Shown: positions 1 to 52,337, counted from the stretch's first letter. The stretch is DNA of 64,000 nt from Alphaproteobacteria bacterium (GCA_965205905.1 CBDBHZ010000012.1:7869-71868), one strand, 5' to 3'. Notes: generated by a model from the letters alone, not told the origin. Numbers and translations are program-made.

Positions 1-1084
1 AATTAGTTCCGCTAATAACAGGCAAAGTTTCTGGCGTTTCCGTTACCGTTTGCACCGTATTAATCGCAAGCGTATCAGCACTCTTAAATATATCTGCACC
101 GAATGCACCGAAATAATAGCTTTGCTTATCGGCCGCGCTTAGCAAAAATGTGCCCCCAAGCTCTCGTGCCACACTACCATAAAAGCGTGCATCAACCGTG
201 CCAGTTAGCCCACCAGCGCTTGTAATAGCACCATCGCTGATATAATGACTACCATCATCATTGGCAACAAAACTTAATTTTGTGCCATCATTTGTTGTAA
301 AATCAAGAGCCTCAACAGCATTACTCGCACAATCAGTTGCTTTACAGGTGTTAGCAGTGCTCAATATTAGCATTTTAGTTGAAAAATCAACAGTTGCGTT
401 GACATCAAATAGGGTGTTATAGCGTTCTTCTCCAGCACCATAAATACCACTGCCTTTGCCTGTGAATTTTACATTATCAGTTGTAAGGCTTGTGAAATCT
501 GTGGTTACACTTCCCGCAATCATCATACCGTCAATAGTCGTGCCATTGCTCCAACTCAGATGAGTTATTTCTTGCGAGTTAAAGCCAGTCCAAATTTTAT
601 CATTTGTAGAGACATTGAGTGTTACGCCATCAGCAATGCCAGTGAAAATAGTTGCTCTATCAGCCTCGTCTGCTGTATTTGCAGGTGCCTCATATTTTGC
701 GTTCACATAGGCGGTTACGCCAGATATATTTGTCCCAGTTAGTGAGAGAATAAGAATCGGGTCATCAATTTGGCTTACAACCAAACCATCGCGGAATATA
801 CCAAGACTATCACCGAGAGCACCATTACTGACACTATCATTTCTTATCTCTTCTTTTTTAGCTATTTTTGCTGCTTCGTCGGCACCCTCAAATAAATCGA
901 TTGTTGTTCTGGGCGCACCAATAGCAAATTCTATGGTGTCTGGCGTATCATCAGGTGTTTCAGCTGGTGGCGTATCAGATTTAGCAGAACCACCGCCGCC
1001 ACCACCACCACCACCGCCGTTACATGCGGTAAGTGCCACAGAAAAAATGGTGAACATGATGATTGAAAAGACTGAATTTTTCAT
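1..1084 (-). CDS. Modular surface lipoprotein with TbpB/fHbp-like handle-barrel repeats (N-terminal part; gene runs off the window start)
   Basis: Absent from the ORF track because no stop lies in the window. My translation of the minus strand from ATG 1084-1082 (AAGGAG upstream) gives MKNSVFSIIMFTIFSVALTAC-N-G10-SAKSD..., i.e. signal peptide, lipobox LTAC and Gly linker. The frame stays open to position 1 (checked codon by codon for 1-178). It contains ...TGTVDARFYGSVARELGGTFLLSAADKQSYYFGAFGA (about 95-200), the same barrel-closing motif as every module of 1377..6284. Confidence 0.75.
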   Translation of the reverse strand, partial: MKNSVFSIIMFTIFSVALTACNGGGGGGGGGGSAKSDTPPAETPDDTPDTIEFAIGAPRTTIDLFEGADEAAKIAKKEEIRNDSVSNGALGDSLGIFRDGLVVSQIDDPILILSLTGTNISGVTAYVNAKYEAPANTADEADRATIFTGIADGVTLNVSTNDKIWTGFNSQEITHLSWSNGTTIDGMMIAGSVTTDFTSLTTDNVKFTGKGSGIYGAGEERYNTLFDVNATVDFSTKMLILSTANTCKATDCASNAVEALDFTTNDGTKLSFVANDDGSHYISDGAITSAGGLTGTVDARFYGSVARELGGTFLLSAADKQSYYFGAFGADIFKSADTLAINTVQTVTETPETLPVISGTN

Positions 1085-1122
1085 AACTTATCTCCTTGAT
1101 ATGATTCGGTATACCACCTAAA

Positions 1123-1151
1123 AACATACAATATTTGACAAAATTTTGCAA
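1123..1151 (-). promoter_or_regulatory. Candidate sigma70-type promoter, TTGCAA-N17-TATGTT
   Basis: On the sense (minus) strand TTGCAA (1151-1146), a 17-nt spacer and TATGTT (1128-1123) sit about 40 nt upstream of ATG 1084. The same hexamers and spacing are conserved upstream of the paralog at 6323..6351. Confidence 0.4.
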
Positions 1152-1265
1152 TAATTTTTAAGGATAGTCCACATTAGGATGTGAATAAGCAAGAAAAATG
1201 CCATATTGTTTTTTATAATATCAAGGGGTGGCATAAAAAAAGCGGGGGTTGCGGTAGGGGGTAAT

Positions 1266-1317
1266 GGGGGGCGTCCTTGCGGTTAGCAAGGTCGCAAAGC
1301 CCCCCATATATTAATGA
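1266..1317 (-). repeat. Short intergenic repeat: TCATTAATATATGG box plus G6...C6 hairpin (copy A)
   Basis: The minus strand reads TCATTAATATATGGGGGGCTTTGCGACCTTGCTAACCGCAAGGACGCCCCCC. It has an inner stem CCTTGC/GCAAGG and an outer G6/C6 stem. The box recurs at 52357 and 52728. Confidence 0.5.
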
Positions 1318-1318
1318 T

Positions 1319-1352
1319 AAAAAAAGCGGGGGTTTTGACGCCCCCGCTTTTT
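1319..1352 (-). terminator. Rho-independent terminator of the 1377..6284 lipoprotein gene (bidirectional shape)
   Basis: Stem GCGGGGG (1326-1332) pairs with CCCCCGC (1341-1347) across an 8-nt loop. On the minus strand 7 T follow (A-run 1319-1325 on plus); on the plus strand 5 T follow. It lies 25 nt past the stop codon. Confidence 0.8.
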
Positions 1353-1376
1353 GATATTATATCACTCGAATTTTAA

Positions 1377-4300
1377 TTATTTTTGCGCGCCGAAATAGCC
1401 GATATAGGTTGCGGTAGGATTACTTACGATGAATGTGCCACCCATTTCTGCGGCATCTGGTCCGTAAAATCTGGCATTGGCTGTGCCTGACATTTCGTCG
1501 CCATTATTAGTATTTGCCCATTGTTCATCGTAATGAGCCTGTTTATTACCACCGCCACTATAGTAATCGTTACCACCTTTGGAGGCAATATTACCGCTGA
1601 TAGCATTAGTAGTTGAATTATAGCTTAATTTGCCTCTTAAATCATCATCAATTGCTAAGTATTCGTTTCCACAGTTGCTTTCATAACGAAAGCATGTGTC
1701 AAATGTTTTGAAATCGATACTATCTGCATCCGTTATATTCGCAAAATCAACTGTTAGTTTTACCTTAAAGTAACGCGCACGAGTATCACGATTAGCAGTT
1801 GAAGGAGTTTCAGGATAAATTGTGCCATTACCGCGCCCGGTAAATTCTACAGCAGTGCCAGATGTTGGAATATCACTGCCACTTTCAAAGCCAGTGATGC
1901 TATAGCCACGATGATTCGCGTCATTATGCCAAGCAATTGATGCCATATATTTGGCAGAAAAACCAAAATTACGAGACGAAGCCCTGCTGAATGCCATGAA
2001 TTCGGGGTCGGTAACCCCCATGTTACTGGATATATCCGCTTGGTCTACGACTAGGGATGGGGTTAGGACCATGACATTGTTTGAATTTGGTACGAGAGTG
2101 TTGACGAGAGTGAAGTTGCTCAGAGATTCTGTATCACCCGTGCCATCGTCGGCATCAAGCGTGATAGTATGTTGTTTATCATCAAAATAGCTAGAGACGC
2201 TTTCAACATTACCGCTGGCATCATAGCTGATTTCAGCGACTGCGCCAGTATGATGATTGCTATTCTGAGTTTCGACGGTTGTATCATAAGTTGCTTCCAC
2301 TGTTAATGCGTTCAGGGCGATGCCAACCTTACTGGTGGTGTCTTCACCCGTTACGTTAAAACCTGTCAATCCTTGAAGATTTATTGTTGGTGTGGTAATG
2401 GTGGTGGCTTTATCTTCTATGCTAACACTAAGCCCTGTTTTTGCACCAAAGACACCATAATAAAAAACGTCGGCACCGTTTAACGCAAATGCGCCACCAA
2501 ATTCATCGGCACCATAGAAACGGGCATCAATGTAACCTGTGAAACCTGAGGTAACGCGCGAATAACCACCGCCTGCACCATCAAAGTGATGGCTGAGTGT
2601 ATTGTTACTCCCATAATTGATGGCAGGTGTGGTGATGTCATAAGCATTATAATAGGTATCATCAATGGTAATTTGAACAGTAGTAGCGTCAAAATCAATA
2701 GCGGCTGTTACATTAAATGTTGAAGCATCTGTTGTAATGGCACTACCACTGCGCGTAACAATAGAACCTGTGCCTTTACCCTTAAAGGAAAAACTGCCAG
2801 TTTTACCACCAAGGACGCTATTAGAAGTTTCAATGCCTGCAAGCATTCTGCCATTAATAGCCGTATGCGTTTGCATTATATCGGTATTCGTGGCATCAAA
2901 TGCTGTCTTGGTTTGAGACCATGTAACATAAGCCATATATTTTGGCGTAAAGCCAAAAGTTGAATTGAGAGCTGCCCCTGTTTTCGCAGTTGCAGTTGTG
3001 TTATATTCAGCATCAGCAAAAGCAGTTACTGCTGTGCCATCACCATTCGCATCAAATGTAGCGGTAACCGCAGGGAGTGAGCTACCTGATGCAATGCGCG
3101 TTGCACCAATTTCTCTGGTAATGTCTTGGGTTTGACCCGTCCAATCACTAACAATATCGTTACGTTCGCGTGTGTAAATAGTGGCATCATTTCTATCAAC
3201 AGCAAGACCTTGCAGATTGATGCTTGTGCCAGCAGAATCAGCTAGCTCACCCATGTCTACAATAGTAAGTGTAGGCGTGGGTGTAAAGACTGTTTTATTT
3301 GCCACAGCAACAACTTCTGTTGTTGTGCCTGCGGTGAATGTATCGGTAAGCGTTCCAAATTTTGCACCAAACGCACCATAATAGCTTGTATTGCTGTTGG
3401 CAAGCGCAAATGTGCCACCAAATTCATCGGTGGTCGTGCCATAGAAACGCGCATCAAGCTGACCTGCCATGCCCGCAACCGTAGGATTCGCACCAACACC
3501 AAATTGATAATTGATGCTTGTATCTGCTTGCGTATAGTCGATGGCAGTGGTGGTGAAATCAAGCGTAGCAGTATCTGTGTTAGAAGTATTGGTGGTTTTA
3601 ATGGTTACATCATCAGTCGCAAAATTAACATCTGCACTCACATCAAATGTTACATTCTCAGATGAAAAAGTAGTGCCATTCCCTGTGTTATAAACGCCCG
3701 CGCCTTTACCCGTAAAACTGGTTGTGCCTGTAACACGAATCGCAGCGGTTTCAATACCCGCTATCATCATGTGGTGGCGACCCGTAACCGTTTGCGTGTT
3801 GGTTGTGGCATCAGTGGCAATAAGCGCGCCATCTTGTTGCCAAGTAACATACGCCATATATTCAGCATTCGCATTGCCCGCAAAGCCGAAAATCGTAGCT
3901 CTATCAATAGTCGCATTGCTATAGCTCGCATTATCATAGGCTGATACTGCTGAGAGAGACGTGCCATTATCACCAAATGTGAGCGTAACAGCAGGCGAAG
4001 TGATTCGCACTAAGTTTGAGGTGCGCGCAATGGTTAAACCATTGGGATTTTCTGCGCTAGCAACCAGCCAATCAGTGCCAGCATCGGTCCGCGTATAGAC
4101 ACTGCTATAATCATATTCCACAGCCACGCCTTGCAATGTTATATCTATTGCTGAATTGCCGTTTGCCGCGCCAGCAACAGCGGTGAGTGACGCATGGGTT
4201 TTGGTATCAACTGCCATAGGGTTTGTTGCCGCTATGTCATCACCAACTGCCGCACTATAGGTGATGGTATTGAGCGGAAGCGCATCACGGTCTGCACCAA

Positions 4301-6284
4301 ACGCGCCATAATAATAGCTATTGGCATTGGTTAGCGCGAATGTGCCACCCAATTCTTTGGCATTTGCGCCGTAAAAGCGTGCATCAAGCGTGCCTGCAAG
4401 CGAGGTAGTGCCAGTGTTTGCGCTTGTAACAGCCGCAGTGAGATTGTTGAAATCAGTGATTGTGGCGAAGTTGGTGAAATCAAGGCTACTGCCAATCGCG
4501 CCAACCGTGCCATTGGTGGCAATCGCTACATTAGGAGTGGTGAAATTAACAGTGGCGGTTACATTAAAGATGGTTGCCTCGCCTGCGGTGGCATCCGTAG
4601 CATCAGCATCATAGACGCCCGCGCCTTTGCCGGTAAATGTTACATTGCTAGCCGTGAGAGGTGTGAAATCAGCGGTTTCAATACCCGCAATCATCATGCC
4701 ATCAAAATCGGTGATTGTGTCTGTTGACAGGCTTGTGCCAAGGTCGTCATTGGTTTCAGTTTGGCTCCATGTAACATATGCCATATATTGCGAATCAGCA
4801 CCAAAGCCGAAAATCGCGCTTCTATCCACAGTGGCAGGCGTGATTGTGTGGACAGCATTAGCATAAGCTTTTACGCCCGTGATAGCATTACCAGCAATGG
4901 TGAGCTCAAGCGCAGGATTGCCACCAACTGGCGCAATGCGTGAGAGTGTGAAATCTTCAACAATTTGCAGATTGCTTTTATTGGTGATATCCCAAGCGCC
5001 ACTGGTTGCCTCGCGTGTGTATTTACGTGTGTGGTTGTAGTCAACCGCCAAGCCTTTCAAGACGATGGTAGCATCAGTTGTTAAATCTATGGCTGAGGTT
5101 GCATCTGGCGTTGTGCCAGTAGATGCGGTTGCGGTTGCATCTGGCGTTGCAGAAGTAAGAGAATTGATTGCCTCGCTGTTTTTGAAAGTGAAATCAATCG
5201 CCCCACGTTGTGCGCCGAACGCACCATAGTAATATTGTGTATCGGCTTGGGCAAGGGCAAATGTGCCACCCAATTCGTTCGCGCCAACAACCGTTTTATC
5301 AGCGGCATCAGTTTGAGCGTTACCATAAAAACGTGCATCAAGATGACCGTTCATACCAAGTAAAGAAAGGTTGGTAGTGATACTATTACCGCTATAGCTG
5401 AATGATTTTGCGGGGATATCAAGACTAGATGCAGTGATGCCTGTGTTACAAGTAGCGCCAGCATCACAAGCAGTGCCTGTGGTTGCAATTGTGAGCGTGT
5501 TGCTTGTAAACACAGCAGTCGCGGTTACACCAAATGTTACATTATCTGCTTTGGTGGCATTGCCATAAACGCCTTTGCCGTTACCCGTAAATATGGCAGT
5601 GCCTGTGCCGACGCCTGTTGGAACCGCAGTGGTTTCAATACCCGCAATCGCCATTGCCATTTTTGTATATTGTGTAGGTGGTGTGTCATCAAAATTGACG
5701 GCTTGCGAATCACTCCATGTAACATAAGCCATATATTTGGCATCAACATTACTAGTAAAGCTGAAAATATTCGCAGTCGCATCGCTACGCGCCTCGTCAG
5801 CATAGATGGTTGCGCCAGTAATTGCACCGCTAGCAAATGTAAGCCCAACAGCAGATGACGTGGGGGTGCGTGAGAGGGTTGCCGTGCGCGCGCGGGTTAA
5901 GCCTTTTGAATTATCTTCACCATCAACTTGCCAATCAACGCCATCAATACGGCTGTAAGCAGTGGATTCATTGAATGAAACTGTTAGAGCGGGGAGAGTG
6001 ATAGTAGAATCTGCAACCGCTGTGAGCGATGTATTGCCTTGTATATCAAGTGATTCGGTATTCGCTATCGTATCCAGTTCGGCTGAAAATTCGAATGTGT
6101 TTTCGGTATCGGCGCATTTGGTAAGGTCTTCAGGACATTCTTTTGTAGTAGCAGTAGGGGCAGGGTCAGTATCGGTATCGGTTGTATTGGCTGCGCCACC
6201 ACCACCGCCACCGCCACCATTACATGCGGTGAGTGCAACTGAAAAGATTGTGAATAAAATGATTGAAAAGACTGAATTTTTCAT
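1377..6284 (-). CDS. Giant modular surface lipoprotein (1635 aa) with five TbpB/fHbp-like handle-barrel modules
   Basis: ORF track gives 1377..6317. I trimmed the start to ATG 6284 (MKNSVF..., AAGGAG upstream) by homology with the paralog starting at 1084. It has a signal peptide, lipobox LTAC and a G8 linker. Five modules each carry ..YMAYVTWS.., ..FTGKG.G.Y.. and a closing ..DARFYG..E(L/F)GG(T/A)F....YYG.FGA. ARFYG codons lie near 5321, 4369, 3440, 2511 and 1462, a period of about 930-1050 nt. The motif pattern matches the 8-stranded barrel of TbpB C-lobe/fHbp/hemophilin-type lipoproteins. Confidence 0.85.
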   Translation of the reverse strand: MKNSVFSIILFTIFSVALTACNGGGGGGGGAANTTDTDTDPAPTATTKECPEDLTKCADTENTFEFSAELDTIANTESLDIQGNTSLTAVADSTITLPALTVSFNESTAYSRIDGVDWQVDGEDNSKGLTRARTATLSRTPTSSAVGLTFASGAITGATIYADEARSDATANIFSFTSNVDAKYMAYVTWSDSQAVNFDDTPPTQYTKMAMAIAGIETTAVPTGVGTGTAIFTGNGKGVYGNATKADNVTFGVTATAVFTSNTLTIATTGTACDAGATCNTGITASSLDIPAKSFSYSGNSITTNLSLLGMNGHLDARFYGNAQTDAADKTVVGANELGGTFALAQADTQYYYGAFGAQRGAIDFTFKNSEAINSLTSATPDATATASTGTTPDATSAIDLTTDATIVLKGLAVDYNHTRKYTREATSGAWDITNKSNLQIVEDFTLSRIAPVGGNPALELTIAGNAITGVKAYANAVHTITPATVDRSAIFGFGADSQYMAYVTWSQTETNDDLGTSLSTDTITDFDGMMIAGIETADFTPLTASNVTFTGKGAGVYDADATDATAGEATIFNVTATVNFTTPNVAIATNGTVGAIGSSLDFTNFATITDFNNLTAAVTSANTGTTSLAGTLDARFYGANAKELGGTFALTNANSYYYGAFGADRDALPLNTITYSAAVGDDIAATNPMAVDTKTHASLTAVAGAANGNSAIDITLQGVAVEYDYSSVYTRTDAGTDWLVASAENPNGLTIARTSNLVRITSPAVTLTFGDNGTSLSAVSAYDNASYSNATIDRATIFGFAGNANAEYMAYVTWQQDGALIATDATTNTQTVTGRHHMMIAGIETAAIRVTGTTSFTGKGAGVYNTGNGTTFSSENVTFDVSADVNFATDDVTIKTTNTSNTDTATLDFTTTAIDYTQADTSINYQFGVGANPTVAGMAGQLDARFYGTTTDEFGGTFALANSNTSYYGAFGAKFGTLTDTFTAGTTTEVVAVANKTVFTPTPTLTIVDMGELADSAGTSINLQGLAVDRNDATIYTRERNDIVSDWTGQTQDITREIGATRIASGSSLPAVTATFDANGDGTAVTAFADAEYNTTATAKTGAALNSTFGFTPKYMAYVTWSQTKTAFDATNTDIMQTHTAINGRMLAGIETSNSVLGGKTGSFSFKGKGTGSIVTRSGSAITTDASTFNVTAAIDFDATTVQITIDDTYYNAYDITTPAINYGSNNTLSHHFDGAGGGYSRVTSGFTGYIDARFYGADEFGGAFALNGADVFYYGVFGAKTGLSVSIEDKATTITTPTINLQGLTGFNVTGEDTTSKVGIALNALTVEATYDTTVETQNSNHHTGAVAEISYDASGNVESVSSYFDDKQHTITLDADDGTGDTESLSNFTLVNTLVPNSNNVMVLTPSLVVDQADISSNMGVTDPEFMAFSRASSRNFGFSAKYMASIAWHNDANHRGYSITGFESGSDIPTSGTAVEFTGRGNGTIYPETPSTANRDTRARYFKVKLTVDFANITDADSIDFKTFDTCFRYESNCGNEYLAIDDDLRGKLSYNSTTNAISGNIASKGGNDYYSGGGNKQAHYDEQWANTNNGDEMSGTANARFYGPDAAEMGGTFIVSNPTATYIGYFGAQK

Positions 6285-6322
6285 AATTAACTCCTTAGAT
6301 ATGATTCGGTATACCACCTAAA

Positions 6323-6351
6323 AACATATATTATTGCAAGAAATTTTGCAA
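6323..6351 (-). promoter_or_regulatory. Candidate sigma70-type promoter, TTGCAA-N17-TATGTT
   Basis: Sense-strand TTGCAA (6351-6346), a 17-nt spacer and TATGTT (6328-6323). Position and sequence are conserved with 1123..1151. Confidence 0.4.
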
Positions 6352-6510
6352 CCAAAATATAAAAGGCAATGCCAATGCCTGTGCATAAGCAAGAAAAATG
6401 CCAATATGTTTTGGCACAAATCTTGCTTAATATCGATTGGAAGAGTATATTTTGTATATGGGTTTTGAAAATGACACATATTATATAGTGTAAGAAATGG
6501 GGATTTAATA

Positions 6511-7437
6511 ATGGGCAGCGATATAGATTTACGGTTAGGGTTAGGGCGTGCCGTGCGCTCTACATTGCACACGTTGCAGAGTAATAAAGATTTAACCGAA
6601 CGCACTCAGATTCGCCTGACAACTGGCAAGAAAATCAATTCGGTGGTTGATGGCGTGATAGATTATTTCCGCAGTGAGGCGCTGATTGAGCGCTCCGATA
6701 TTTTTAAACGCAGGCGTGAAGAAGTTGGGCAGGCGGTGAGCAATCTTAAAGCCCATATCAGCGCATTGGATTCGCTAGAAGAATTTATTGACCAATTAAA
6801 AGGGCATGTTACAGCGGCGCGTGCCAAAACCGACCCCGAAGATAAGGAAGGCTTTACTGAAGCGTTTCGCGAAGTGGGGTATCAGCTTTTGTTGTTGGTG
6901 AATGATGTTGATTATAATGGGCTGAATTTGCTTGCCAGTGATAACAGTATCTTGACGGTGCGGTTTTCGGATATAGAAGAATCGCGCATTGATATTGTGG
7001 GGCAACAAGTGCTGGGCTCAAGGGTGTCGGCAGGCGGTTTGTTTAGCGAGGGCGTTTATAACCTTACCGCACCTGAATTTTTGGATAGCAATTTTGATTT
7101 AGGCTCTAGCAATTTTGCGGGGTTTTCTAACATTGATAATAGCAATATTTCGCAATCGGATGTGTTATATCAAAAATTGGAATTGGCAACAAACAGGATA
7201 GAAAATATCACCCGCAATTTGGGAAATCGCGTGGCTTTACTGCAAGGGCGTGAGCAATTTTTAACGCAATATACCACCGAATTATTGATTGGTTCTGAGA
7301 AAATTTCAACGGCTGACCTTGAAGAAGAAAGCGCAAATTCTGTGGCGCTGGAATTGAAGCATCAGATTGGGCTGACCTCTATCACCAATACCAACCGCAA
7401 TCATCAATATTTGTTGCAGATTATCAATAGCAGCTGA
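6511..7437 (+). CDS. Flagellin/FlgL-family protein (308 aa), orphan copy
   Basis: The N-terminus ..LQSNKDLTERTQIRLTTGKKINSVVDGVIDYFRSE.. and C-terminus ..ISTADLEEESANSVALELKHQIGLTSITNTNRNHQYLLQII resemble the conserved terminal helices of flagellin family proteins (alpha-type ..YW/YF.. variant). A central ..YNGLNLL.. motif is present. No other flagellar gene is in the window. Confidence 0.6.
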   Translation: MGSDIDLRLGLGRAVRSTLHTLQSNKDLTERTQIRLTTGKKINSVVDGVIDYFRSEALIERSDIFKRRREEVGQAVSNLKAHISALDSLEEFIDQLKGHVTAARAKTDPEDKEGFTEAFREVGYQLLLLVNDVDYNGLNLLASDNSILTVRFSDIEESRIDIVGQQVLGSRVSAGGLFSEGVYNLTAPEFLDSNFDLGSSNFAGFSNIDNSNISQSDVLYQKLELATNRIENITRNLGNRVALLQGREQFLTQYTTELLIGSEKISTADLEEESANSVALELKHQIGLTSITNTNRNHQYLLQIINSS

Positions 7438-9672
7438 TTACCGTCTTTTTTTGCCAATATTTTTGCCAGTATTTTTATTGGCGGGCTTTTTATAGCCACC
7501 TTGCTTACGGTCGTCTTGCTTACGGTCGTTTGGCTTGTCAAATTTTTTGTTACCAAATGTCCGTCCGCCACTGGGTTTTTTATCATCGCTTCTTCTATCG
7601 TCGCTGTTCTTTTTAGAGCGTTTCTTATAAGGCTTTTTGCCGAATTTATCTTTATCCCTATATTTATCTTTACCGTCATCTTTGCCGAGTTTTATATCGT
7701 CAGCAGGTGCGAATGTTACATTGGCGGTGAGAGGGTCTGCCTCCATCACGATAATATCAATCTTTTGTTGGGTGGTGAACAAATCATTCAGCGATGCGCG
7801 TTGTTGATATTGTCCGCGCTGATAGCGTTCGCGTCTTGGAAACAGCAATCTTGCGGGCAAAAACCCCTCGACCCGTGTTTTATCAAGCCTAATAAACAAC
7901 CCTGCTTCGCTGATATGGGTGATGATACCGCTCATTTTCTTATCAATATAGCTTTCAGCCAGTTGCGCACTGTAGCGGTCAAAACAGGAATATTCGCATT
8001 TTTGAGCATTGCGTTCGGTAGCCGAAATATGCGTGCAAATCTCGTCATCAATCATAGGCGGGCTATCTTGATTATCAAGCACAGAACATAATGCGCGATG
8101 CACCAGTAAATCGGCATAGCGTCTGATGGGCGAGGTGAAATGGCAATAATGCTGTAATGCCAATCCAAAATGCCCGATATTTTTGCGCGCATAAACCGCT
8201 TGCGCTTGGGCGCGTAAAGTGGCATCGGTTAGCAATGCGTAAAAGCTTTCGCCTTTGGCGCGCTTTAATAATTGCTGATAATCCTTGCTGTGATTGCCCA
8301 TTCTGTTCGGCATTTCCATCCCTAAATTAAGGGCAGCCTGCCGTAATTCTTCGCCTTTTTCTTTGGAGGGTTTATCATGGATTCGATACACGCAATCTAT
8401 GAGATTTTTGGTTAAAAACTGCGCCACTGCCACATTGGCGGCAATCATGGCTTCTTCAATCATTTGATGCGATTCTAGGCGCGGTGCAGGGCTAATATCA
8501 ACGGGCAGAAAATCCTTATCAAAATTGATACGATATTCGGTTCTATCCAAATCAATCGCGCCACGTTTTTCGCGCTGTAATCGTAATTGTTGATAGGCTT
8601 GATAGAGGCAATCAATTTGTGGCTTTAGCTTATGGGGCTTGAGCGAATCCAGATTGAGTTTTTCGCTTCGCTTGGGCCTGTGGCTGTTGATGATTTTTTC
8701 AGCCTGTTCATAAGTAAGGCGCGCCGCTGAATGAATGGTGGCACGGAAAAAATCACATTCGCCAATCATTCCATTTGACGATATTTGCATTTTCGCCACC
8801 AGCACGGGACGGTCTTGATTTGGCACCAGCGAGCATAAATCATTGCTGAGCCGTTCGGGCAACATTGGCACTGCCATATCGGGGAGATAAACCGAATTGC
8901 CACGTTTTACAGCTTCCTTATCAAGCGGGCTATGGGCGGCAACATAATGGCTAACATCGGCAATTGCCACATATAAAATCAGGCTGTTGCTGTCGTCATC
9001 AGCAGGGGTGGCATAAAGGGCGTCATCAAAATCTTTGGCATCAGCGCCATCTATGGTAACAAAGGGCAGGGCGGTTAAATCAACACGTTTATTTTGCGTG
9101 TTATTATCGGCTTCAAAAGGGGGCAACTGATTTGCCTGTTGCAACATTTCATCGGGGAATTCAAGTGGAATATTAAATTGCGCCAATGTGATATAGCTTA
9201 ACGCATGGGGTTGGCTCTGACTGGATAAGCGCGTGAAAGATTCAATCACCGATTTGATTTTTTCTTGCCGTATCTTTGCGCTGATTAAATCGCCATCTTT
9301 TAAGTCTTGCTTTAGCACCCATGCTTTATCTAGCGGTATATCTAACCGATTTTTACTGGTGCGGCTCATCGCGCTGTGAAACCACCATTCGCTTTGGTTT
9401 TTTACAATCATGCCGATGGTAGCAGCCTCTGCTTGTGGGCTGATAAGATGTAGAATATGGGCGTGGTAACATACATCACCCTCATCATGCAATTCTAGCC
9501 GTGCCAAGATATGGTCGTTGGTTTTAGGTGCAAATTTTTTATGTTTGGCAAGAAAGATAGGTTGGTTAACTTTATAGACGGGGTCAAGCGGTGTTAAAGC
9601 AATATCACCATTGCCATCGGGCGCTGATATTTTTAACCATATAGCCGATGGGTGGGCGGGGGATTTATTCAT
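7438..9672 (-). CDS. rnr: Ribonuclease R
   Basis: 744 aa with an RNB catalytic region (..DGADAKDFDDALYA.., ..HFGLALQHYCHFTSPIRRYADLLVHR..), a C-terminal S1-like segment and a Lys/Arg-rich tail. The ATG abuts the topA stop. Confidence 0.93.
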   Translation of the reverse strand: MNKSPAHPSAIWLKISAPDGNGDIALTPLDPVYKVNQPIFLAKHKKFAPKTNDHILARLELHDEGDVCYHAHILHLISPQAEAATIGMIVKNQSEWWFHSAMSRTSKNRLDIPLDKAWVLKQDLKDGDLISAKIRQEKIKSVIESFTRLSSQSQPHALSYITLAQFNIPLEFPDEMLQQANQLPPFEADNNTQNKRVDLTALPFVTIDGADAKDFDDALYATPADDDSNSLILYVAIADVSHYVAAHSPLDKEAVKRGNSVYLPDMAVPMLPERLSNDLCSLVPNQDRPVLVAKMQISSNGMIGECDFFRATIHSAARLTYEQAEKIINSHRPKRSEKLNLDSLKPHKLKPQIDCLYQAYQQLRLQREKRGAIDLDRTEYRINFDKDFLPVDISPAPRLESHQMIEEAMIAANVAVAQFLTKNLIDCVYRIHDKPSKEKGEELRQAALNLGMEMPNRMGNHSKDYQQLLKRAKGESFYALLTDATLRAQAQAVYARKNIGHFGLALQHYCHFTSPIRRYADLLVHRALCSVLDNQDSPPMIDDEICTHISATERNAQKCEYSCFDRYSAQLAESYIDKKMSGIITHISEAGLFIRLDKTRVEGFLPARLLFPRRERYQRGQYQQRASLNDLFTTQQKIDIIVMEADPLTANVTFAPADDIKLGKDDGKDKYRDKDKFGKKPYKKRSKKNSDDRRSDDKKPSGGRTFGNKKFDKPNDRKQDDRKQGGYKKPANKNTGKNIGKKRR

Positions 9673-12414
9673 TTATTTTTTTGTCTGCTTCTTCGTTGTC
9701 GTTGTTGTTTTTTTGGCAGTTGTCTTTTTCGCAGGTGCTTTTTTCTTTGCCGCTGGTTTTTTTGCAGGTGCTTTCTTAACAGGGGCTTTCACCACTATCT
9801 TTTTCGCGCCCTGTGCCAGTAATTCCAGTGCGGTTTCAAAATCGGTGCTTTGTGCATCGGCTTTGCGCCCCACCGCCGCATGTTCATCGTGATGCTGAAT
9901 GTAATAGCCATAGCGTCCGTAACGCAATAACACATCATGCCCGCTATCAGGGTGCGTGCCTAATACAACACCGCGTTTTTTCTTCAGGGTCTCACTCACC
10001 AAATCAACGGCACGGTTGATGCCAATTTCTAGCACATCATCAGATTTAAGCGAGACAAAATCATTGCCGACTTTCAAGAATGGACCAAATCGCCCGATAC
10101 CACCCGTAATCATTTCAGCCGTTTCAGGATAAATGCCAATCTCGCGTGGCAATGCCAATAATTGCACGGCTAAATCCATCGTAACATGGTTGGCATTATA
10201 GATGCGTGGCAGGGGTGCGCGTCTGGGTTTAGGGGCGACTGGTTTTTTCTTCCTGCCTTTTGTTTTTTTCTCTGGTTCTGGCGTTTCTTCTTTTTGGGCT
10301 TCAGCAGGGTCTAGCTCTGGCTCTTGTTGCAGATACAACCCGTAAGGCCCTTTACGCAGGCTGATTTCTTGCCCATTAACAGGGTGCGCGCCTAATATTT
10401 TGGGGAATATCATCTCGCCATCAGCGCCATCTTGCGCGTCTGCCTCCTCGCCTAATTGCCCGGTATAGCGGCATTCAGGATATTGGTCGCAAGCGATAAA
10501 TGCCCCGAATTTACCTGTGCGGAGCGATAAACGCCCTTCTTTGCATGATGGGCATTTGCGCTTTTCCTCACTGGTTTTATCATCAGTGGCAGCAAAATAA
10601 TGAAAAGCAAGTTTCTCATCAAGCTGTTTGCTAACATCAGCGGGTGTTACTTCTTCAACCCTATCAATCAGCTTGCCCATATCAGCCCAAAATGTGTTAA
10701 GCAGGCTTTTCCATTGCATCGCGCCATGCGAAATCTCATCAAGCTTATCTTCCAAATCAGCGGTGAAATCATACTCAACTTGCTCTGGAAAATACAGCTC
10801 TAGGAAGCTGACAATGATGCGCCCAATATCATCAGGGATAAAGCGTTTTTTATCCAGATGCACATATTTGCGATTAACCAGCACCTGCAAGATTGAGGCA
10901 TAGGTTGAGGGACGCCCGATGCCCAATTCTTCCAGTTTTTTCACCAAAGACGCATCAGAATAGCGGGGCGGGGGTTGCGTAAAATGTTGGCTTGGCGTTA
11001 CATTTTGCTTGTTTAACGCCTCATTCTCGGTAAGGGGTGGCAGTAAGCGATTCTCGTCATTTTCCTGCTGTTGGGTGTCGCCATCTTTAGTGTTGGGTTC
11101 ATCATCACGCGATTCCATGTAAAGCCGTGTAAAACCATCAAATAGCATCACCGAGCCATTGGCGCGAAAATTGATTTTTTTATCTTCATTGGCAATATCA
11201 GCCGCCACTTTTGCAAATTGAGCATTTGCCATTTGCGTGGCAAGGGCGCGCTTCCAAATCAACTCATACAGTTTGGCTTGGTCAGCATCTAGGAATTGCC
11301 GAATATCGCTAGGCGCATATTCAAAATGGGTCGGGCGAATGGCTTCATGTGCCTCTTGCGCGTTTTTCACCTTGCTTTTATAGCGGCGCGGACTATCAAG
11401 CAGATATTTCTTGCCAAATTTTTGCGAAACCAGTGAGGTGGCGTTTTGCACTGCCTCATCAGAAAGGTTCACCGAATCCGTCCGCATATAGCTAATCAGC
11501 CCGATGGTTTTGCCTTTAATATTAATGCCCTCATATAATTTTTGCGCCACCATCATGGTATGTTGTGCGCGGAAATATAATTTACGCGCCGCTTCTTGTT
11601 GCAAAGTTGAGGTGGTGAAAGGTGGGGGTGGGCTACGTTGCACATTGCTTTTTTTAATGTGAACAATGCTGTAATTCTGTGCCTCACATGCTGATGTGAT
11701 GCGGGTGGCATCTTCTTGGTTGTTGATTGAAAATTTGCCTAATTTTTCGCCATCAAAATGAGTGAGGCGGGCAGGAAACGCTATTTTTTCTTGGTTTTTT
11801 TCGGGGTTTTTCTGGAATTGCGCTTCCACCGTCCAAAATTCTTGTGGATTAAATAATTCAATCTCATTCTCGCGCTCACATACCAACCGAAGCGCCACCG
11901 ATTGCACGCGCCCTGCCGAACGGGCGGCACGCGATATTTTGCGCCATAATAAAGGTGAGATTGAGAAACCCACCAAATAATCTAAGGCACGGCGGGCAAG
12001 ATAGGCATCTACCAAATCCTGATTGATGGCACGGGCATTGGCAATCGCTTTTTGGATCGCGGTTTTGGTGATTTCGTGAAACACCACACGTTCGGTGGTT
12101 TTGTTTTTCAGCTTATCTTGCAACACAGAATGTAAATGCCATGCAATCGCTTCACCCTCGCGGTCAGGGTCGGTGGCAAGAATAAGTTTATTCGCTGATT
12201 TTAACGCGGTCTCGATTTGCTTTAGGCGCGGGGCAGCGCGTTCGCTAAGCTCCCACCGCATCGCGAAATCTTCTTCAGGCAATACCGAGCCTTTTTTAGA
12301 AGGCAAATCGCGGATATGCCCATAGCTAGCCAACACCTGATAGTCTTTACCCAAATAGCCAGCGATGGTTTTGGCTTTGGCAGGCGATTCCACAATGACA
12401 AGATTTTCAGCCAT
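9673..12414 (-). CDS. topA: DNA topoisomerase I
   Basis: 913 aa. It has the TOPRIM N-terminus MAENLVIVESPAKAKTIAGYLG..., ..SYGHIRDLP.., the active-site region ..ISYMRTDS.., a Zn-ribbon (CPSCKEGRL..) and a C-terminal AKKP-type lysine-rich tail. Confidence 0.96.
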   Translation of the reverse strand: MAENLVIVESPAKAKTIAGYLGKDYQVLASYGHIRDLPSKKGSVLPEEDFAMRWELSERAAPRLKQIETALKSANKLILATDPDREGEAIAWHLHSVLQDKLKNKTTERVVFHEITKTAIQKAIANARAINQDLVDAYLARRALDYLVGFSISPLLWRKISRAARSAGRVQSVALRLVCERENEIELFNPQEFWTVEAQFQKNPEKNQEKIAFPARLTHFDGEKLGKFSINNQEDATRITSACEAQNYSIVHIKKSNVQRSPPPPFTTSTLQQEAARKLYFRAQHTMMVAQKLYEGINIKGKTIGLISYMRTDSVNLSDEAVQNATSLVSQKFGKKYLLDSPRRYKSKVKNAQEAHEAIRPTHFEYAPSDIRQFLDADQAKLYELIWKRALATQMANAQFAKVAADIANEDKKINFRANGSVMLFDGFTRLYMESRDDEPNTKDGDTQQQENDENRLLPPLTENEALNKQNVTPSQHFTQPPPRYSDASLVKKLEELGIGRPSTYASILQVLVNRKYVHLDKKRFIPDDIGRIIVSFLELYFPEQVEYDFTADLEDKLDEISHGAMQWKSLLNTFWADMGKLIDRVEEVTPADVSKQLDEKLAFHYFAATDDKTSEEKRKCPSCKEGRLSLRTGKFGAFIACDQYPECRYTGQLGEEADAQDGADGEMIFPKILGAHPVNGQEISLRKGPYGLYLQQEPELDPAEAQKEETPEPEKKTKGRKKKPVAPKPRRAPLPRIYNANHVTMDLAVQLLALPREIGIYPETAEMITGGIGRFGPFLKVGNDFVSLKSDDVLEIGINRAVDLVSETLKKKRGVVLGTHPDSGHDVLLRYGRYGYYIQHHDEHAAVGRKADAQSTDFETALELLAQGAKKIVVKAPVKKAPAKKPAAKKKAPAKKTTAKKTTTTTKKQTKK

Positions 12415-12557
12415 AAAATTATTCCGTTAATGATACAAATAAGCCTACTCTTTACAGCAAAAGCAAGTAAAAGGCAAACATTATCATATAAAATTAAAAC
12501 CATTATGAAAATCAGGTTGAGAGTTGCTTTTTTTATGTGCATCACTATAATGCCCGA

Positions 12558-14105
12558 ATGAACATGTTAAAACAATATATCGTTAAGGGCTTTCAGTTTA
12601 TTTTTGCCCTTAATATCAGCCCATTATTATTTATGGTTTTGTTTAGTTGGGCATTCCTGCTAGATATGTTAGAGCGCAATGGGCATTTGATGCGCCCGAG
12701 TGATACGCTATTATTTTTTGCCTATGGGTGCATCATTGTATTATTGCAATATTTCATGGCTCTTAGAATCAAACCATATTGTAAACATATCAATATTTAT
12801 TATGCCGTCATCACATTATTATTTATTGTTAATCTGCTTGGTTTTTATTTGTTAAGTTACGGACGATATATACAAGCACCATTATTTGGGCAAATAGTAA
12901 CATTATTAATAGTCGGAGGGTTGTTTTACATCATTATTAAATATAGCGAGAAATGGGTGTTCTTTATCACATTATTGCTGATTTATTCATTATTTATTGC
13001 AGGCGCAGTTTCGGGCAAAACAAAACTTCTTGATAAGATAAATGCAACGCAAATTGCATTGCCAGAAAATTATACGCCGCAAAATTTTAGCAAAAAGCCG
13101 AATATTTACCTGCTCTCGTTCGATGCCATGATGCCACAGAATGTCGCGCAAAAATTGCTTAATTTGCAACCATCAGAAATACCTACATATTTTGATGTTT
13201 TGCAACAAAATGATGCTGTTATTATCCCCAATGCTTTCACATATTTACCGAAAACCTCCAGCTCATTTTCATCATTGCTTGCATTAGATATTGAATGGTA
13301 TCGCGCATTATATCAGAAATATATAAATTACGGTGCCGAAATGGTAACGGGCGCACGCTGGACACCTACCTATGATATTTTTGACCGCAATGGCTATGAT
13401 TTGCAGATGGTTTATGAGAGTGATTTTTTTATCAGCCCATTAAGGATTGAAAATAAAAAAGTAACTTACTGGTATAAAACCAAAGGTGAAGGATTTTGCA
13501 AACATATTGACCTTGCTTATTCATTATGGGGATATTGTGCGCTTAAATCTGTGTTTGTTGAAATTATCAATGCCAATAACAATATTGATAATATCTATCA
13601 TGATAGGTTGCAAGCGGCGGCACAGTCAGCAAAGCCAACATTTACATTTGCCTATACTTTTGTGCCGGGGCATACAACGGCATCGCATAATGGCAATGAT
13701 TTAGAACAGGTGGCGGAATATAAGCAGGATTTTTTACTTAATAGTATCGAAGCCGCAAAATATCTGCAAAATTATATTGATATTATTCGCGCTGATGATA
13801 AGGATGGCATTATCATCATTTTTGGTGATCATGGCGCTTGGATAACCAGAGGGATTGATGCCGATAATATCCCTGCCGATAGCCTTTATGGTAAAACAGA
13901 TATTGTGCAAGATAAGTATGGGGTGTTGCTTGCAGTGCTTGACCCACATGGGTGTAAGATTGCCGATAGGGTTGTAACCACATTGCCCGATATGATGTAT
14001 CATCTTATCACTTGCTTAACGGGTGGCAAACCAGTGCTGAAAGAACGTTATGATAGCGAGGCTGAATTTATCGACTATCTCTACGACTCTATTTCATCAC
14101 AATAG
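12558..14105 (+). CDS. Membrane enzyme, 5 TM plus alkaline-phosphatase-superfamily (sulfatase/LtaS/ENPP-like) domain, paralog 1
   Basis: ORF track starts at GTG 12537. ATG 12558 or 12564 aligns better with paralogs 3 and 4 (MW(L/Q)QK...LLDMLERNG). Five hydrophobic helices precede PNIYLLSFDAMMP (metal Asp), LPKTSSSFSSLLALD (Ser/Thr nucleophile region), VPGHT and FGDHGAW. Confidence 0.7.
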   Translation: MNMLKQYIVKGFQFIFALNISPLLFMVLFSWAFLLDMLERNGHLMRPSDTLLFFAYGCIIVLLQYFMALRIKPYCKHINIYYAVITLLFIVNLLGFYLLSYGRYIQAPLFGQIVTLLIVGGLFYIIIKYSEKWVFFITLLLIYSLFIAGAVSGKTKLLDKINATQIALPENYTPQNFSKKPNIYLLSFDAMMPQNVAQKLLNLQPSEIPTYFDVLQQNDAVIIPNAFTYLPKTSSSFSSLLALDIEWYRALYQKYINYGAEMVTGARWTPTYDIFDRNGYDLQMVYESDFFISPLRIENKKVTYWYKTKGEGFCKHIDLAYSLWGYCALKSVFVEIINANNNIDNIYHDRLQAAAQSAKPTFTFAYTFVPGHTTASHNGNDLEQVAEYKQDFLLNSIEAAKYLQNYIDIIRADDKDGIIIIFGDHGAWITRGIDADNIPADSLYGKTDIVQDKYGVLLAVLDPHGCKIADRVVTTLPDMMYHLITCLTGGKPVLKERYDSEAEFIDYLYDSISSQ

Positions 14106-14186
14106 CTTTGATTTGATGGTTGCTTTTTAAAGTTAATTATATTATACAGTTTTAGATGCGATGTTTTTTCTTAAAAGGAGTGCCAA

Positions 14187-49238: not shown

Positions 49239-52200
49239 ATGAAACACCTTGTTTTACCGATATTATTATCCCTCACCCTTATTGCTTGCAATGGTAGCAG
49301 TGCTGGCGGTAGCACCGCATCCGATAACACAGGCACTGACCCTGTAACAGACCCTAAAACAGACCCTGTAACTGACCCTAAAACTGACCCTGTTGAGAAA
49401 ACATGCGCGACTGATATTACCCTATGCCTTGAGAGCGTTACGCACATTTTTAGCTTTACCGAAACGCTTGGCACAATTACGGTTGCCCCCGAATCGCAAA
49501 CCACAACCACCGCCTATAGTGAAACCTCGCTCACAGCGGCAGCCACAGCCAATAGCAATATCATTACCCTGCCTGCGATTGCCGTGTTGTTTAACAATAG
49601 CACCAGTTACAAGCGTGAAGCTAGCACGGTTGACTGGAATAATAGTGAGGATAGAGGCATCATCACCACGCCCAATGCCACTTTATCACGCACCTCGCTC
49701 GATGTTTCTGCTAAATATCCGACTGTGCAACTCACACTTGATGGCTCGGCATTCACGGCAGAAATCTATGCTGACGATACCTATAGCAATCTAACTGCCG
49801 ATACAAGTTCAACTTTCTTCGGCTTTACTGCCACCAATATGGCGTTTGTTGAATGGAGCGATTCGCCCACGCCTGCCTTTGATTTAAGCACCCAAACAGG
49901 TGATTTAGCAACGGATTACAGCAAGCAAGGCATGTTGATAGCGGGCATTGCCACCACTGATTTTACCATGCTTGATGGCGCAACGCAATTTACCGGCAAA
50001 GGCAAGGGCGAATATGGCGTGTTGCAAGCGGATAAAAGCTTTACGCCTTACGATACCACATTCAGCACCAGAATTAATGTTGATTTCGTCAGTAAAATGC
50101 TTGATTTCTATAGCTATGGCACGGCTTGCGATAGTTGCACATTGCCTGCCGATACCGACCTTAATCTCACCGCAACGGGTTTAAGTTTTGCTGATGCTGT
50201 TGGTAATAATCTCAGCACCAATACCGCAAGTGCAGGCACATTAACAGGCACGCTTGATGCGCGATTCTATGGCAATGTAGGCGATGGCGCAAATGAATTT
50301 GGTGGCACATTCGCGCTTACCGATAATGCAAGCTATTATTATGGTGCATTCGGGGCAGAAATTGGCGATTGGTTTGTGTTTACGAATCAGGTTACAACTG
50401 CTGATGCAGGTGAGATGATTGGTGACTACACTGTGCCAACGGCTAATAAAGAAGGCGTAGCAAACACAACAGATTTAACCTTAACAAGCTTTACTGATAC
50501 AGATGCCAATAAGGGTAAAACCAATATTACCTTGCCTGCCTCTATGGTTTATCTTCAAAGAGTAACTGGCAACACTAAAACCATCACCAATAATATTTTT
50601 GAAAATAGTGCCACCAATAAAGCCGTGCTACAATTTTCTTATGATTCTGCTGGTCAGTTTTTTGCTAATAAAGACAATGACGGCGACAATGATAAAACCA
50701 ACGACAACCATGTCGCCCTCTATTTTGGTGATAAACGCTATGGAATAACGATTGGCACAAACGCTGGAAACGCTATTGCCATTGATGGTGATAATTTCGC
50801 TTCGAGTGATAATGTTTTTATTCTTAATTTTGAAATGATTAACGCTAATAGTGACTCTGTTTTTGGCTTTGCCACCGACTATATGGTCAATATCAGTTGG
50901 AATGCAACTGGTGGCAGGCTTGGCATGGGCGTTGCCGGTTTTGAAACTGAAACATTGCTAACTGCTGGCGCCACCCGTTTCACGGGCAGAGGGCGTGGTG
51001 CTTATGCTTCTTCAAGCAGTAGCCCACTCACTAGCGTCCGCTATTTTGCTATCACCGCCGATATTGATTTTTTCGAGCGTAGTGTGGTGCTAGAAAGCCG
51101 TAATACTTGTAGTAATATCGATAATTGCTCTGGCACGTTAATACCAGAACTTGATTTCAAAGGCACTTTAGAATATGCGGAGGGCATCAATGCCATTTCT
51201 GGCACTATTGCCACCAAAGCCACTAGCACTGCAGGCTCGGCATTAACAGGCAAGGCTTTTGCCAAATTTTACGGAGGCGACACCCAAGAATTTGGTGGCA
51301 CTTTCAGCCTACAAAACGCATCAAGTGAGAGCTATATCGGCTTCTTCGGCGGTGTGCGCGGTGATTATCTTATTTTTAGTAACGATGATGTTACAACCGA
51401 TGCAGTGATTACTGATAGCACAGATTCATCAATAACCTATAATACGCCAACGATTGATAAGCAAGACCTAACAGGTTTGAATGATAGCAATCGCGCAAGT
51501 AAAACCATCACCTTGCCTGCCTCTATCGTCTATATCAGAAGAGATACAACTGCTAAAACCATCACCAACACTATTGTTGAAAATAGTGCTGATAATAACG
51601 CAGTGCTAGAATTTTCTTATGATGCAGATGGTAAATTATTTGCTAATAGCAACAACCCTGCCGCCCTCTATTTTGATGATAAACGCTATGCGGTTACTGA
51701 TTCATCAGCGAATGACAATTATATTGAAAGTGCATTTTCTGGTGACAGCAGTGATGGTGGGATTCTTACTGTTTTATCATTCAGTAAATCTAGTAATAAC
51801 TTTGACTTTGCCACAGAGTATATGATCAGGATTCACTGGGAGGGAGTTATTGGATTAACCGATAATATTTCGGGTAGCGGGGTTGCAGGTTTCGAAACCA
51901 TAGGCAGTGCAATTCCTACATCTAGCAGTGCCAGTTTCACGGGCAAAGGGAGTGGCAATGATTATGATGAAGGTAACAGTGCCAACCGCTATTTTGATAT
52001 TGATGCCGATATTGATTTTAGCAATCGCACTGTGGCACTGGAAAGCCGTAATACTTGTAGCAATCCTAATAATTGCTCTGGCACGTTAAAACCAGAACAT
52101 GATTTTAAAGGCACTTTAAGCTACGAAGCAGGCACAAACGCTATCACGGGTAATATCATTGCCAAAGGCAATGATGATAGTTTTGATAGTGATGACGGCA

Positions 52201-52337
52201 CGCAATTAACAGGCACAGCCAATGCCAAATTTTACGGAATTGTAACTGATGGCGCACCCGCAGAATTAGGCGGCACATTTTCTATGCAACACCCATCAGG
52301 CGAGGGCTATATAGGCTTTTTCGGGGCGACGAAATAA
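49239..52337 (+). CDS. Modular surface lipoprotein (1032 aa) with three TbpB/fHbp-like handle-barrel modules
   Basis: ATG 49239 follows CAGGAG (49225-49230); the track starts at 49158. The signal peptide is MKHLVLPILLSLTLIAC (lipobox LIAC). Three closing motifs are LDARFYG..EFGGTFAL..YYYGAFGA (about 50259), AKFYG..EFGGTFSL..YIGFFGG (about 51261) and AKFYG..ELGGTFSM..YIGFFGATK (about 52224). Confidence 0.85.
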   Translation: MKHLVLPILLSLTLIACNGSSAGGSTASDNTGTDPVTDPKTDPVTDPKTDPVEKTCATDITLCLESVTHIFSFTETLGTITVAPESQTTTTAYSETSLTAAATANSNIITLPAIAVLFNNSTSYKREASTVDWNNSEDRGIITTPNATLSRTSLDVSAKYPTVQLTLDGSAFTAEIYADDTYSNLTADTSSTFFGFTATNMAFVEWSDSPTPAFDLSTQTGDLATDYSKQGMLIAGIATTDFTMLDGATQFTGKGKGEYGVLQADKSFTPYDTTFSTRINVDFVSKMLDFYSYGTACDSCTLPADTDLNLTATGLSFADAVGNNLSTNTASAGTLTGTLDARFYGNVGDGANEFGGTFALTDNASYYYGAFGAEIGDWFVFTNQVTTADAGEMIGDYTVPTANKEGVANTTDLTLTSFTDTDANKGKTNITLPASMVYLQRVTGNTKTITNNIFENSATNKAVLQFSYDSAGQFFANKDNDGDNDKTNDNHVALYFGDKRYGITIGTNAGNAIAIDGDNFASSDNVFILNFEMINANSDSVFGFATDYMVNISWNATGGRLGMGVAGFETETLLTAGATRFTGRGRGAYASSSSSPLTSVRYFAITADIDFFERSVVLESRNTCSNIDNCSGTLIPELDFKGTLEYAEGINAISGTIATKATSTAGSALTGKAFAKFYGGDTQEFGGTFSLQNASSESYIGFFGGVRGDYLIFSNDDVTTDAVITDSTDSSITYNTPTIDKQDLTGLNDSNRASKTITLPASIVYIRRDTTAKTITNTIVENSADNNAVLEFSYDADGKLFANSNNPAALYFDDKRYAVTDSSANDNYIESAFSGDSSDGGILTVLSFSKSSNNFDFATEYMIRIHWEGVIGLTDNISGSGVAGFETIGSAIPTSSSASFTGKGSGNDYDEGNSANRYFDIDADIDFSNRTVALESRNTCSNPNNCSGTLKPEHDFKGTLSYEAGTNAITGNIIAKGNDDSFDSDDGTQLTGTANAKFYGIVTDGAPAELGGTFSMQHPSGEGYIGFFGATK
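49338..49394 (+). repeat. 12-bp tandem repeat encoding (DP[VK]T)n linker
   Basis: gaccctgtaaca/gaccctaaaaca/gaccctgtaact/gaccctaaaact/gaccctgtt encodes DPVTDPKTDPVTDPKTDPV just after the lipobox. Confidence 0.9.

Follow-up and report, generated by a model that had tools for sequence, protein, structure and literature searches.

What kind of protein is encoded by two giant tandem genes at the left end of a 64,000-nt stretch of DNA from an Alphaproteobacteria bacterium (GCA_965205905.1, CBDBHZ010000012.1:7869-71868, the whole of which is called the window below), and what might such proteins do? We found that these neighbouring genes, here named gene 1 and gene 2 and both lying on the minus strand, encode lipobox-bearing proteins composed of five and seven repeated modules, respectively, each of which is predicted to be a complete lobe of the transferrin-binding protein B (TbpB) type. 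The TbpB-fold surface lipoproteins that have been studied carry one or two lobes and come mostly from vertebrate pathogens, and they are known as vaccine antigens and as models of export by Slam or the type XI secretion system (T11SS).

The open reading frame (ORF) of gene 1 is intact (1377..6317, minus strand), and its ATG at 6284 gives a product of 1635 amino acids (aa), with coordinates 1377..6284 including the stop codon. The translated N-terminus reads MKNSVFSIILFTIFSVALTAC-NGGGGGGGG, of which the first part (6222..6284) was read as a signal peptide ending in the lipobox LTAC with Cys21, and the predicted lipidated Cys is followed by a flexible linker of one Asn and eight Gly residues (6195..6221). 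Five modules of 306-352 aa, with pairwise identities of 25-44%, come after the linker. Lobe 1 (aa 41-358; 5211..6164), lobe 3 (aa 665-974; 3363..4292) and lobe 4 (aa 975-1281; 2442..3362) were assigned by module alignment and a module hidden Markov model (HMM), lobe 2 (aa 359-664; 4293..5210) by structure prediction, Foldseek and Pfam, and the divergent C-terminal lobe 5 (aa 1282-1635; 1380..2441) by Pfam and as a positional subtype, all on the minus strand. The protein ends 2 aa past the final barrel strand, module 5 itself being aa 1282-1633. A terminator scan placed an intrinsic terminator with a 12-bp stem and a T-run just after the gene (1321..1352, minus strand).

Gene 2 starts with an ATG at 1084 on the minus strand and leaves the window at its left end, so that 361 of its 2197 aa are visible (1..1084). 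This part holds a signal peptide near-identical to that of gene 1, the same lipobox LTAC, a linker of ten Gly residues, the whole of lobe 1 (nt 95-994) and the first part of lobe 2; the full product (P0002) has seven modules. The barrel-closing motif [DN]ARFYG..E[LFM]GG[TA]F..Y[YI]G.FGA has exactly five occurrences in gene 1 (aa 316, 634, 944, 1253 and 1603) and a single one in what is visible of gene 2, and the spacing of DNA repeats (921-1056 bp) agrees with the module periodicity. The initial annotation, which had described a signal peptide, lipobox Cys and poly-Gly linker in both genes, five modules in gene 1, one complete module plus the start of a second in gene 2 and the closing motif at each module end, was borne out on all of these points by the translations, the motif search and the alignment; it had named no strand. 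An assembly or repeat artefact was considered as the origin of the arrays and rejected, the lobes being just 25-60% identical and all ORFs intact.

The modules were assigned to a fold by Pfam, profile searches, AlphaFold2 (AF2) modelling and Foldseek. With a cut-off of 26 bits, Pfam TbpB_B_D was matched by gene 1 (68.2 bits), by gene 2 (32.6 bits) and by a third paralog described below (46.4 bits); it was the sole family above cut-off, and no Pfam family fell on the N-terminal (handle) half of any module. When lobes were scanned singly, lobes 2 (28.7 bits) and 5 (28.5 bits) of gene 1 and lobe 1 of gene 2 exceeded the cut-off, the match of lobe 5 reaching residue 354 of 354. Lobe 3 of gene 1 remained slightly below it (22.5 bits), and lobes 1 and 4, with no Pfam match when taken alone, were recognisable solely via homology to other lobes. 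The AF2 model of gene 1 lobe 2 (predicted local distance difference test score, pLDDT, 85; predicted TM-score, pTM, 0.84) consists of an N-terminal beta-sheet domain and then a barrel of about 8 strands. Searched against the PDB with Foldseek, this model gave 44 matches at E<=1e-3, and all 50 of the top matches listed were TbpB, fHbp, the LbpB N-lobe, HphA or the NHBA C-domain, with target-normalised TM-scores of 0.69 (NHBA barrel) and 0.54 (TbpB C-lobe) and E-values of 1e-4 to 1e-3 for fHbp and HphA. At the level of sequence, the module profile found marginal matches only among PDB sequences (hemophilin, E=0.003; TbpB, E=0.04). Because the AF2 model, the Foldseek matches, the profile matches and Pfam TbpB_B_D bear on the same fold, each module is predicted to be a complete TbpB-type lobe made of handle and barrel. 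The barrel is conserved and the handle divergent; 40 modules were aligned. The initial annotation had called the modules barrels of TbpB/fHbp/hemophilin type; the type is upheld by Pfam and by every listed Foldseek match, but the modules are not barrels alone, each consisting of a handle plus a barrel in the AF2 view.

The third paralog (49239..52337, plus strand) encodes a 1032-aa lipoprotein with the lipobox LIAC and three lobes, supported by Pfam, the module HMM and AF2 modelling of the three lobes together, and it carries TDP repeats after the lipobox (TDPVTDPKTDPVTDPKTDPV). It lies directly downstream of a gene fusing DUF1989 and GCV_T domains (46761-49142). In the three-lobe model the inter-lobe segments had pLDDT below 50 and the pTM was 0.39, which is weak evidence compatible with a string that would have no fixed inter-lobe packing, the pTM being too low to read inter-lobe geometry from it. 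Two additional family proteins of 3100 and 3251 aa, with about ten lobes each, apparently come from the same contig as the window, so that this contig would carry five or more paralogs with about 35 lobes between them.

Several signals point to the cell envelope. The lipobox, judged by regular expression and by eye, lies at residues 18-21 in genes 1 and 2. Across the family, 158 proteins were examined and 103 of them have it at residues 17-21; in many of the remaining 55 the start is miscalled or a normal N-terminus is visibly missing. After processing, the proteins would be acidic (pI about 4.2) and rich in Thr (14-16%), their Lys plus Arg content is about 5% compared with about 12% in housekeeping proteins of the window, and their cysteines occur exclusively as C-x2-6-C pairs. 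Such a composition fits an extracytoplasmic protein.

Which partners could carry these proteins across the outer membrane? Domain scans of the 44 ORFs of at least 150 aa in the 64-kb window detected no DUF560/Slam, TonB-dependent receptor or TonB domain, in agreement with the initial annotation, which had seen no receptor or Slam gene there. Six related gene sites were compared (L001/L002, L003, L004, L005, L006 and L007; L003 as ORF coordinates only, without domain annotation), and within about 10 kb at L001/L002, L004, L005, L006 and L007 no TonB-dependent receptor or TonB gene was present. The missing linkage argues against a classical tbpBA-type operon. Since a lipoprotein gene adjoins no more than about 52% of Slam genes (PMC5449769), an unlinked Slam gene is compatible with Slam dependence. 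In the published Slam model the substrate is unfolded, is recognised by a C-terminal specificity motif and folds outside (PMC9090332), and T11SS outer-membrane proteins with one-lobe lipoprotein cargo are present in marine Alphaproteobacteria (PMC12282271). Because no Slam/DUF560 gene was seen in the examined stretches, the surface exposure of the lipoproteins is something we infer from their sequences.

The same negative result, together with an NCBIfam slam_lipo score below cut-off, would suit a lineage without Slam, in which the proteins stay on the inner leaflet of the outer membrane, face the periplasm and serve the envelope in a structural or chaperone-like capacity. We regard this as quite improbable. 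By our estimate, chains of 1600-4500 aa with 5-14 folded lobes appear longer than the periplasm could accommodate. The structural neighbours found are without exception surface or secreted proteins, marine Alphaproteobacteria do possess T11SS outer-membrane proteins (PMC12282271), and quick diversification beside conserved neighbours, described below, is typical of exposed proteins.

The family is wide and variable in size. A search of a word-indexed protein database returned 44 relatives of 900-2700 aa, the named ones labelled 'transferrin-binding protein-like solute binding protein [Alphaproteobacteria bacterium]', and a profile search of the same database added merely 6 short matches. An exhaustive profile search of 1.84 billion representative proteins gave 1032 matches at E<=1e-3, 144 of them at E<=1e-30. 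Scanning genome contigs with gene 1 returned a single related locus (L003) in a metagenome-assembled genome (MAG), and scanning metagenome contigs with the module profile returned no match. The number of lobes per protein forms a continuous range from 1 (about 360-420 aa) to 14 (4491 aa), and most family proteins stop 0-3 aa after the final barrel strand. This is a fast-evolving family from uncultured marine Alphaproteobacteria, some of them from sponges, and it has no published study.

Lobes differ by position. When last lobes were compared with the lobes of other proteins, the best match was again a last lobe in 44 of 61 cases (21% expected, p=2e-17), and first lobes paired with first lobes in 37 of 61 (p=2e-11). 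By sequence comparison the lobes are thus specialised by position, the C-terminal lobes forming a positional subtype of their own. In the tandem pair, lobes 1-3 of gene 1 are collinear with lobes 2-4 of gene 2 at 48-60% identity, the highest value (60%) being that of gene 1 lobe 3 and gene 2 lobe 4. A 158-nt stretch covering the 5' untranslated and upstream sequence, the signal peptide and the Gly linker is 84% identical between the two genes (994-1151 and 6194-6351), and outside it they have diverged to 30-60% at the protein level. This shared stretch suggests gene conversion and may also be a substrate for recombination between the tandem genes. The positional lobe classes, the collinear lobes and the shared 5' ends therefore indicate segmental duplication and gene conversion, as far as sequences can tell.

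Hypervariability is best seen in the syntenic locus L005 (GCA_022599655.1), which has the gene order of the window: genes for 520-aa membrane proteins, topA, a gene for an RNB-family RNase, a flagellin-like gene and a giant lipoprotein gene. Between L005 and the window, TopA is 91% identical, the flagellin-like protein 90%, the 520-aa membrane protein 73% and the RNase 72%, and the giant lipoprotein is about 30% identical and has 7 lobes instead of 5. A clearly closest counterpart in L005 exists for gene 2 lobe 1 only (50% identity). The locus is kept and what it contains changes, through either fast divergence or the replacement of one paralog by another. Family genes are elsewhere dispersed singly or in tandem amid housekeeping genes. 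At L004 (a related metagenome contig, 5769-12923) a gene for a 2384-aa, 7-lobe protein lies between atpI and the ATP synthase a-subunit gene atpB and so splits a housekeeping operon; L007 has a two-lobe member among housekeeping genes, and L003 two tandem giants of 1841 and 2186 aa. The largest member found, with 4491 aa and 14 lobes, is encoded at L006 (GCA_022605385.1, 808-14283), adjoining a gene for an 890-aa Peptidase_S8 protein; another large ORF leaves the contig end there.

Such variability could also belong to a passive coat or decoy, which would mask the outer membrane from phages, predators or host phagocytes, vary by escape, and be made of lobes without specific ligand. Hypervariability and paralog expansion, the acidic, Thr/Ser-rich and Lys/Arg-poor composition and the dispersal of the genes amid housekeeping genes are all in line with it, and it overlaps with the reading favoured below, from which sequence alone cannot separate it. 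In every studied case, however, the handle-plus-barrel lobe is a binding module (Foldseek neighbours; PMC12282271), and the handle, retained whole in each lobe, hints at some activity of the lobes; a purely passive coat therefore seems highly improbable to us.

The promoters offer a further clue. Exact matches to the sigma-54 consensus TGGCAY-N5-TTGCW were searched over the 64 kb, and only 3 were found (0.75 expected), before gene 1, gene 2 and a flagellin-like gene (6511..7437; assigned by Pfam Flagellin_N and NCBIfam). The -24/-12 motif TGGCATTTTTCTTGCT lies 104 nt upstream of the gene 1 ATG (6388..6403, minus strand), an identical motif lies 104 nt upstream of the gene 2 ATG (1188..1203, minus strand) within the upstream sequence common to both genes, and the third (6412..6427, plus strand), 84 nt upstream of the flagellin-like gene, stands back to back with that of gene 1. 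Both elements of this divergent pair are kept in L005. We propose, as a hypothesis for this sub-lineage and not family-wide, that the tandem genes may be transcribed from sigma-54-type promoters. The third paralog has a sigma-70-like promoter (TTGACG-N17-TATACT) instead, and in a more distant MAG a related T-rich CTTGYTT motif takes the place of the sigma-54 motif. A T-rich upstream motif (TTTTTTCTTGTTT-like), which resembles the window motif but misfits the sigma-54 consensus, was seen at L001 (about 9880-9930), L003 (about 5050-5080 and 10750-10780) and L004 (about 5660-5690). The same family genes of the more distant MAG have a strong, conserved ribosome-binding context (TTTAGGAGTTAAGTCATG).

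Do the lobes capture nutrients, as the best-known relatives do? TbpB of Neisseria, Pasteurellaceae and Moraxella resembles the proteins described here in being a lipobox lipoprotein with a flexible anchor peptide and lobes of handle plus 8-stranded barrel, in closing the barrel on an RFYG...GG.F...FGA motif and in ending at the last barrel strand. It has exactly two lobes, whereas the family has 3, 5 and 7 in the window and 1-14 overall; it is accompanied by an adjacent TbpA-type receptor, of which the window has none; its handle domains TbpB_A and TbpB_C (names from PMC8406197) are unmatched here, where sequence similarity is marginal (E=0.04); and it belongs to vertebrate pathogens instead of marine Alphaproteobacteria. 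A classical TbpB was accordingly rejected on lobe number, on the absence of a receptor gene and on handles without Pfam match. Transferrin binding is unlikely because no vertebrate host is indicated, the named relatives being environmental MAGs, one of them from sponges.

A multivalent nutrient scavenger is a broader form of the same idea: each lobe would take a metal, heme or another scarce nutrient and pass it to an unlinked TonB-dependent receptor, and many lobes would raise the capture capacity in dilute seawater or host tissue. The characterised structural neighbours that act in uptake (TbpB, LbpB, HphA and hemophilin) all capture nutrients. At L001/L002, where a one-lobe paralog also adjoins the family gene, a gene for a periplasmic binding protein of the SBP_bac_1 type is found some 1 kb upstream, and Slam substrates are not in every case linked to their receptor or Slam gene (PMC5449769). 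Against these points stand the lack of a TonB-dependent receptor or TonB gene in the window and in the flanks given above, an extreme variability in sequence and copy number that poorly fits a conserved small ligand, the 40-module alignment, which shows no conspicuous ligand site of conserved His, Tyr or Met, and a sigma-54-type promoter with no sign of iron regulation. We consider the scavenger unlikely, and a role of the proteins as half of a classical TbpA/TbpB-type receptor is improbable.

Taken together, we favour, with a confidence only a little above even for the statement as a whole, that these outer-membrane lipoproteins of the TbpB/fHbp/hemophilin superfamily, from which the cargo of Slam (T11SS) is drawn, are hypervariable, multivalent binding or adhesion arrays, displayed on the surface at the interface with host or environment after Slam-like export. 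The protein would be exported by Sec and lipidated at the lipobox Cys, as its sequence implies, and the unfolded chain would then cross the outer membrane with its C-terminus leading, once a Slam-like translocon, whose gene would lie elsewhere in the genome, has recognised the specialised last lobe. The positional subtype of the last lobes and the chain ends close behind the last barrel are in line with such C-terminal targeting. Outside, the lobes may fold in turn, giving a flexible, acidic and Thr-rich chain tethered by lipid and Gly linker. Such strings could offer a variable multivalent binding surface for adhesion or recognition in Alphaproteobacteria associated with marine invertebrates, and their genes diversify quickly by lobe duplication, segmental exchange and paralog turnover. 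A related account, in which the strings are a distinct class of modular hypervariable surface fibres of up to 14 lobes, employed by a clade of these invertebrate-associated marine bacteria in host recognition or in avoiding being eaten, are co-regulated with flagellar genes through sigma-54, and are exported C-terminus first by a T11SS handling cargo of more than 4000 aa (or by an unknown route if the lineage has no DUF560 protein), is possible but rather doubtful as a whole.

Several observations weigh against the favoured reading. No DUF560/Slam gene was found in the window or in the domain-annotated flanks of the related family gene sites, and NCBIfam NF041636 (slam_lipo, an equivalog model), the check that the initial annotation had proposed for Slam-dependent lipoproteins, scored 45.5 bits with gene 1, 19 bits with gene 2 and 16.6-25.6 bits with single lobes, short of its cut-off of 80 in each case. 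The residues conserved across lobes all look structural and indicate no ligand. The low pTM of the three-lobe model may merely reflect a shallow alignment of 22 sequences, and the syntenic identity of about 30% could mean paralog replacement and not fast divergence of one gene. Among the related loci compared, the sigma-54 motif occurs only in L005, and the upstream sequences of family genes from the more distant MAG do not show it. Finally, the sponge source is documented for a relative (JAHZMA01) and not for the genome of the window itself.

How new are strings of this length? The closest described proteins are the 'Sphingomonas surface proteins' and 'Psychrobacter surface proteins' (Grossman et al. 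2025, PMC12282271), which also have multiple TbpB_B_D handle-barrel pairs and are mostly lipidated. They carry N-terminal Pro-Thr or PTD repeats, to which the TDP repeats after the lipobox of the third paralog may be compared; under a Pro-Thr/PTD repeat criterion, TDTDTDPAPT is the sole repeat-like stretch in gene 1, and gene 2 has none beyond its Gly run. They differ, compared by description only, in having 2-3 copies, known from prediction only, where 5-14 are found here, and in adjoining a (cluster-1) T11SS outer-membrane protein gene, as no DUF560 gene is present in the window or in the annotated related loci. Single-lobe cargo of Slam/T11SS (fHbp, NHBA, hemophilin/HphA and the Rhodobacteraceae cluster-3 lipoproteins of 282-375 aa) shares the C-terminal 8-stranded barrel, and one-lobe members of 360-420 aa exist in the present family too; such cargo has one lobe and includes some soluble hemophores with defined ligands, unlike the lipidated concatemers described here. 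The cluster-3 lipoproteins show that Alphaproteobacteria can carry T11SS cargo. Slam-dependent surface lipoproteins in general are alike in fold and signals (lipobox, terminal barrel) and unlike in that the NCBIfam equivalog cut-off is missed here. No paper on strings of five or more TbpB-type lobes was found in the literature. The initial annotation had known of no characterised example of a long lobe string, and none has come to light, but 2-3 handle-barrel pairs had already been predicted in 2025. The 5-14 lobes are a new, extreme variant of an architecture described, by prediction, with 2-3 lobes (PMC12282271).

To which organism does the locus belong? The TopA of the window is 90-91% identical to that of a few MAGs and 62-70% to that of a few more, after which identity falls to about 50-54% with Nisaea, Aestuariispira and Azospirillum (Rhodospirillales). 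By this measure the organism appears to represent a deep, uncultured alphaproteobacterial lineage. One related MAG, JAHZMA01 (GCA_022599575.1), has many family members, and its genome source is given as Vazella/Haliclona sponges (PMC13393909, 2026). The window also encodes a methyl-accepting chemotaxis protein (MCP) chemoreceptor, the flagellin-like protein, TRAP and ABC transporters and pyrimidine catabolism, a gene content that suits a motile heterotroph. Scans of the window for Rfam families and for tRNAs gave no match.

Two other regions of the window were noted. On the plus strand, 12537-20552 (GC content 0.37-0.40) encodes four paralogous polytopic membrane proteins of about 520 aa (12537-14105, 15840-17402, 17404-18957 and 18960-20552), whose homologs adjoin topA in L005 too (73% identity), and a 467-aa ORF (14427-15830, plus strand) with faint methyltransferase similarity; none of the five has a Pfam match, and one of the membrane proteins has no NCBIfam match either. 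A cluster resembling reductive pyrimidine catabolism (24095-32594, minus strand, and 29183-29860, plus strand) has genes for a dihydropyrimidine dehydrogenase-like pair, an amidohydrolase, M20 peptidase-like, aldehyde dehydrogenase and Amdase-like proteins, together with a TetR/YcdC-type regulator gene.

In conclusion, the name under which these proteins are filed, 'transferrin-binding protein-like solute binding protein', is misleading, and the annotation calls for a fix. Concatenation of 5-14 lobes into lipoproteins of up to about 4500 aa is a natural test of the translocon, in respect of C-terminus-first export, of folding as its driving force and of its size limit. The family widens the known range of the TbpB fold to uncultured Alphaproteobacteria of the sea, including some from sponges, and as a fast-evolving surface protein with multiple paralogs it is a good candidate for contact between symbiont and host.

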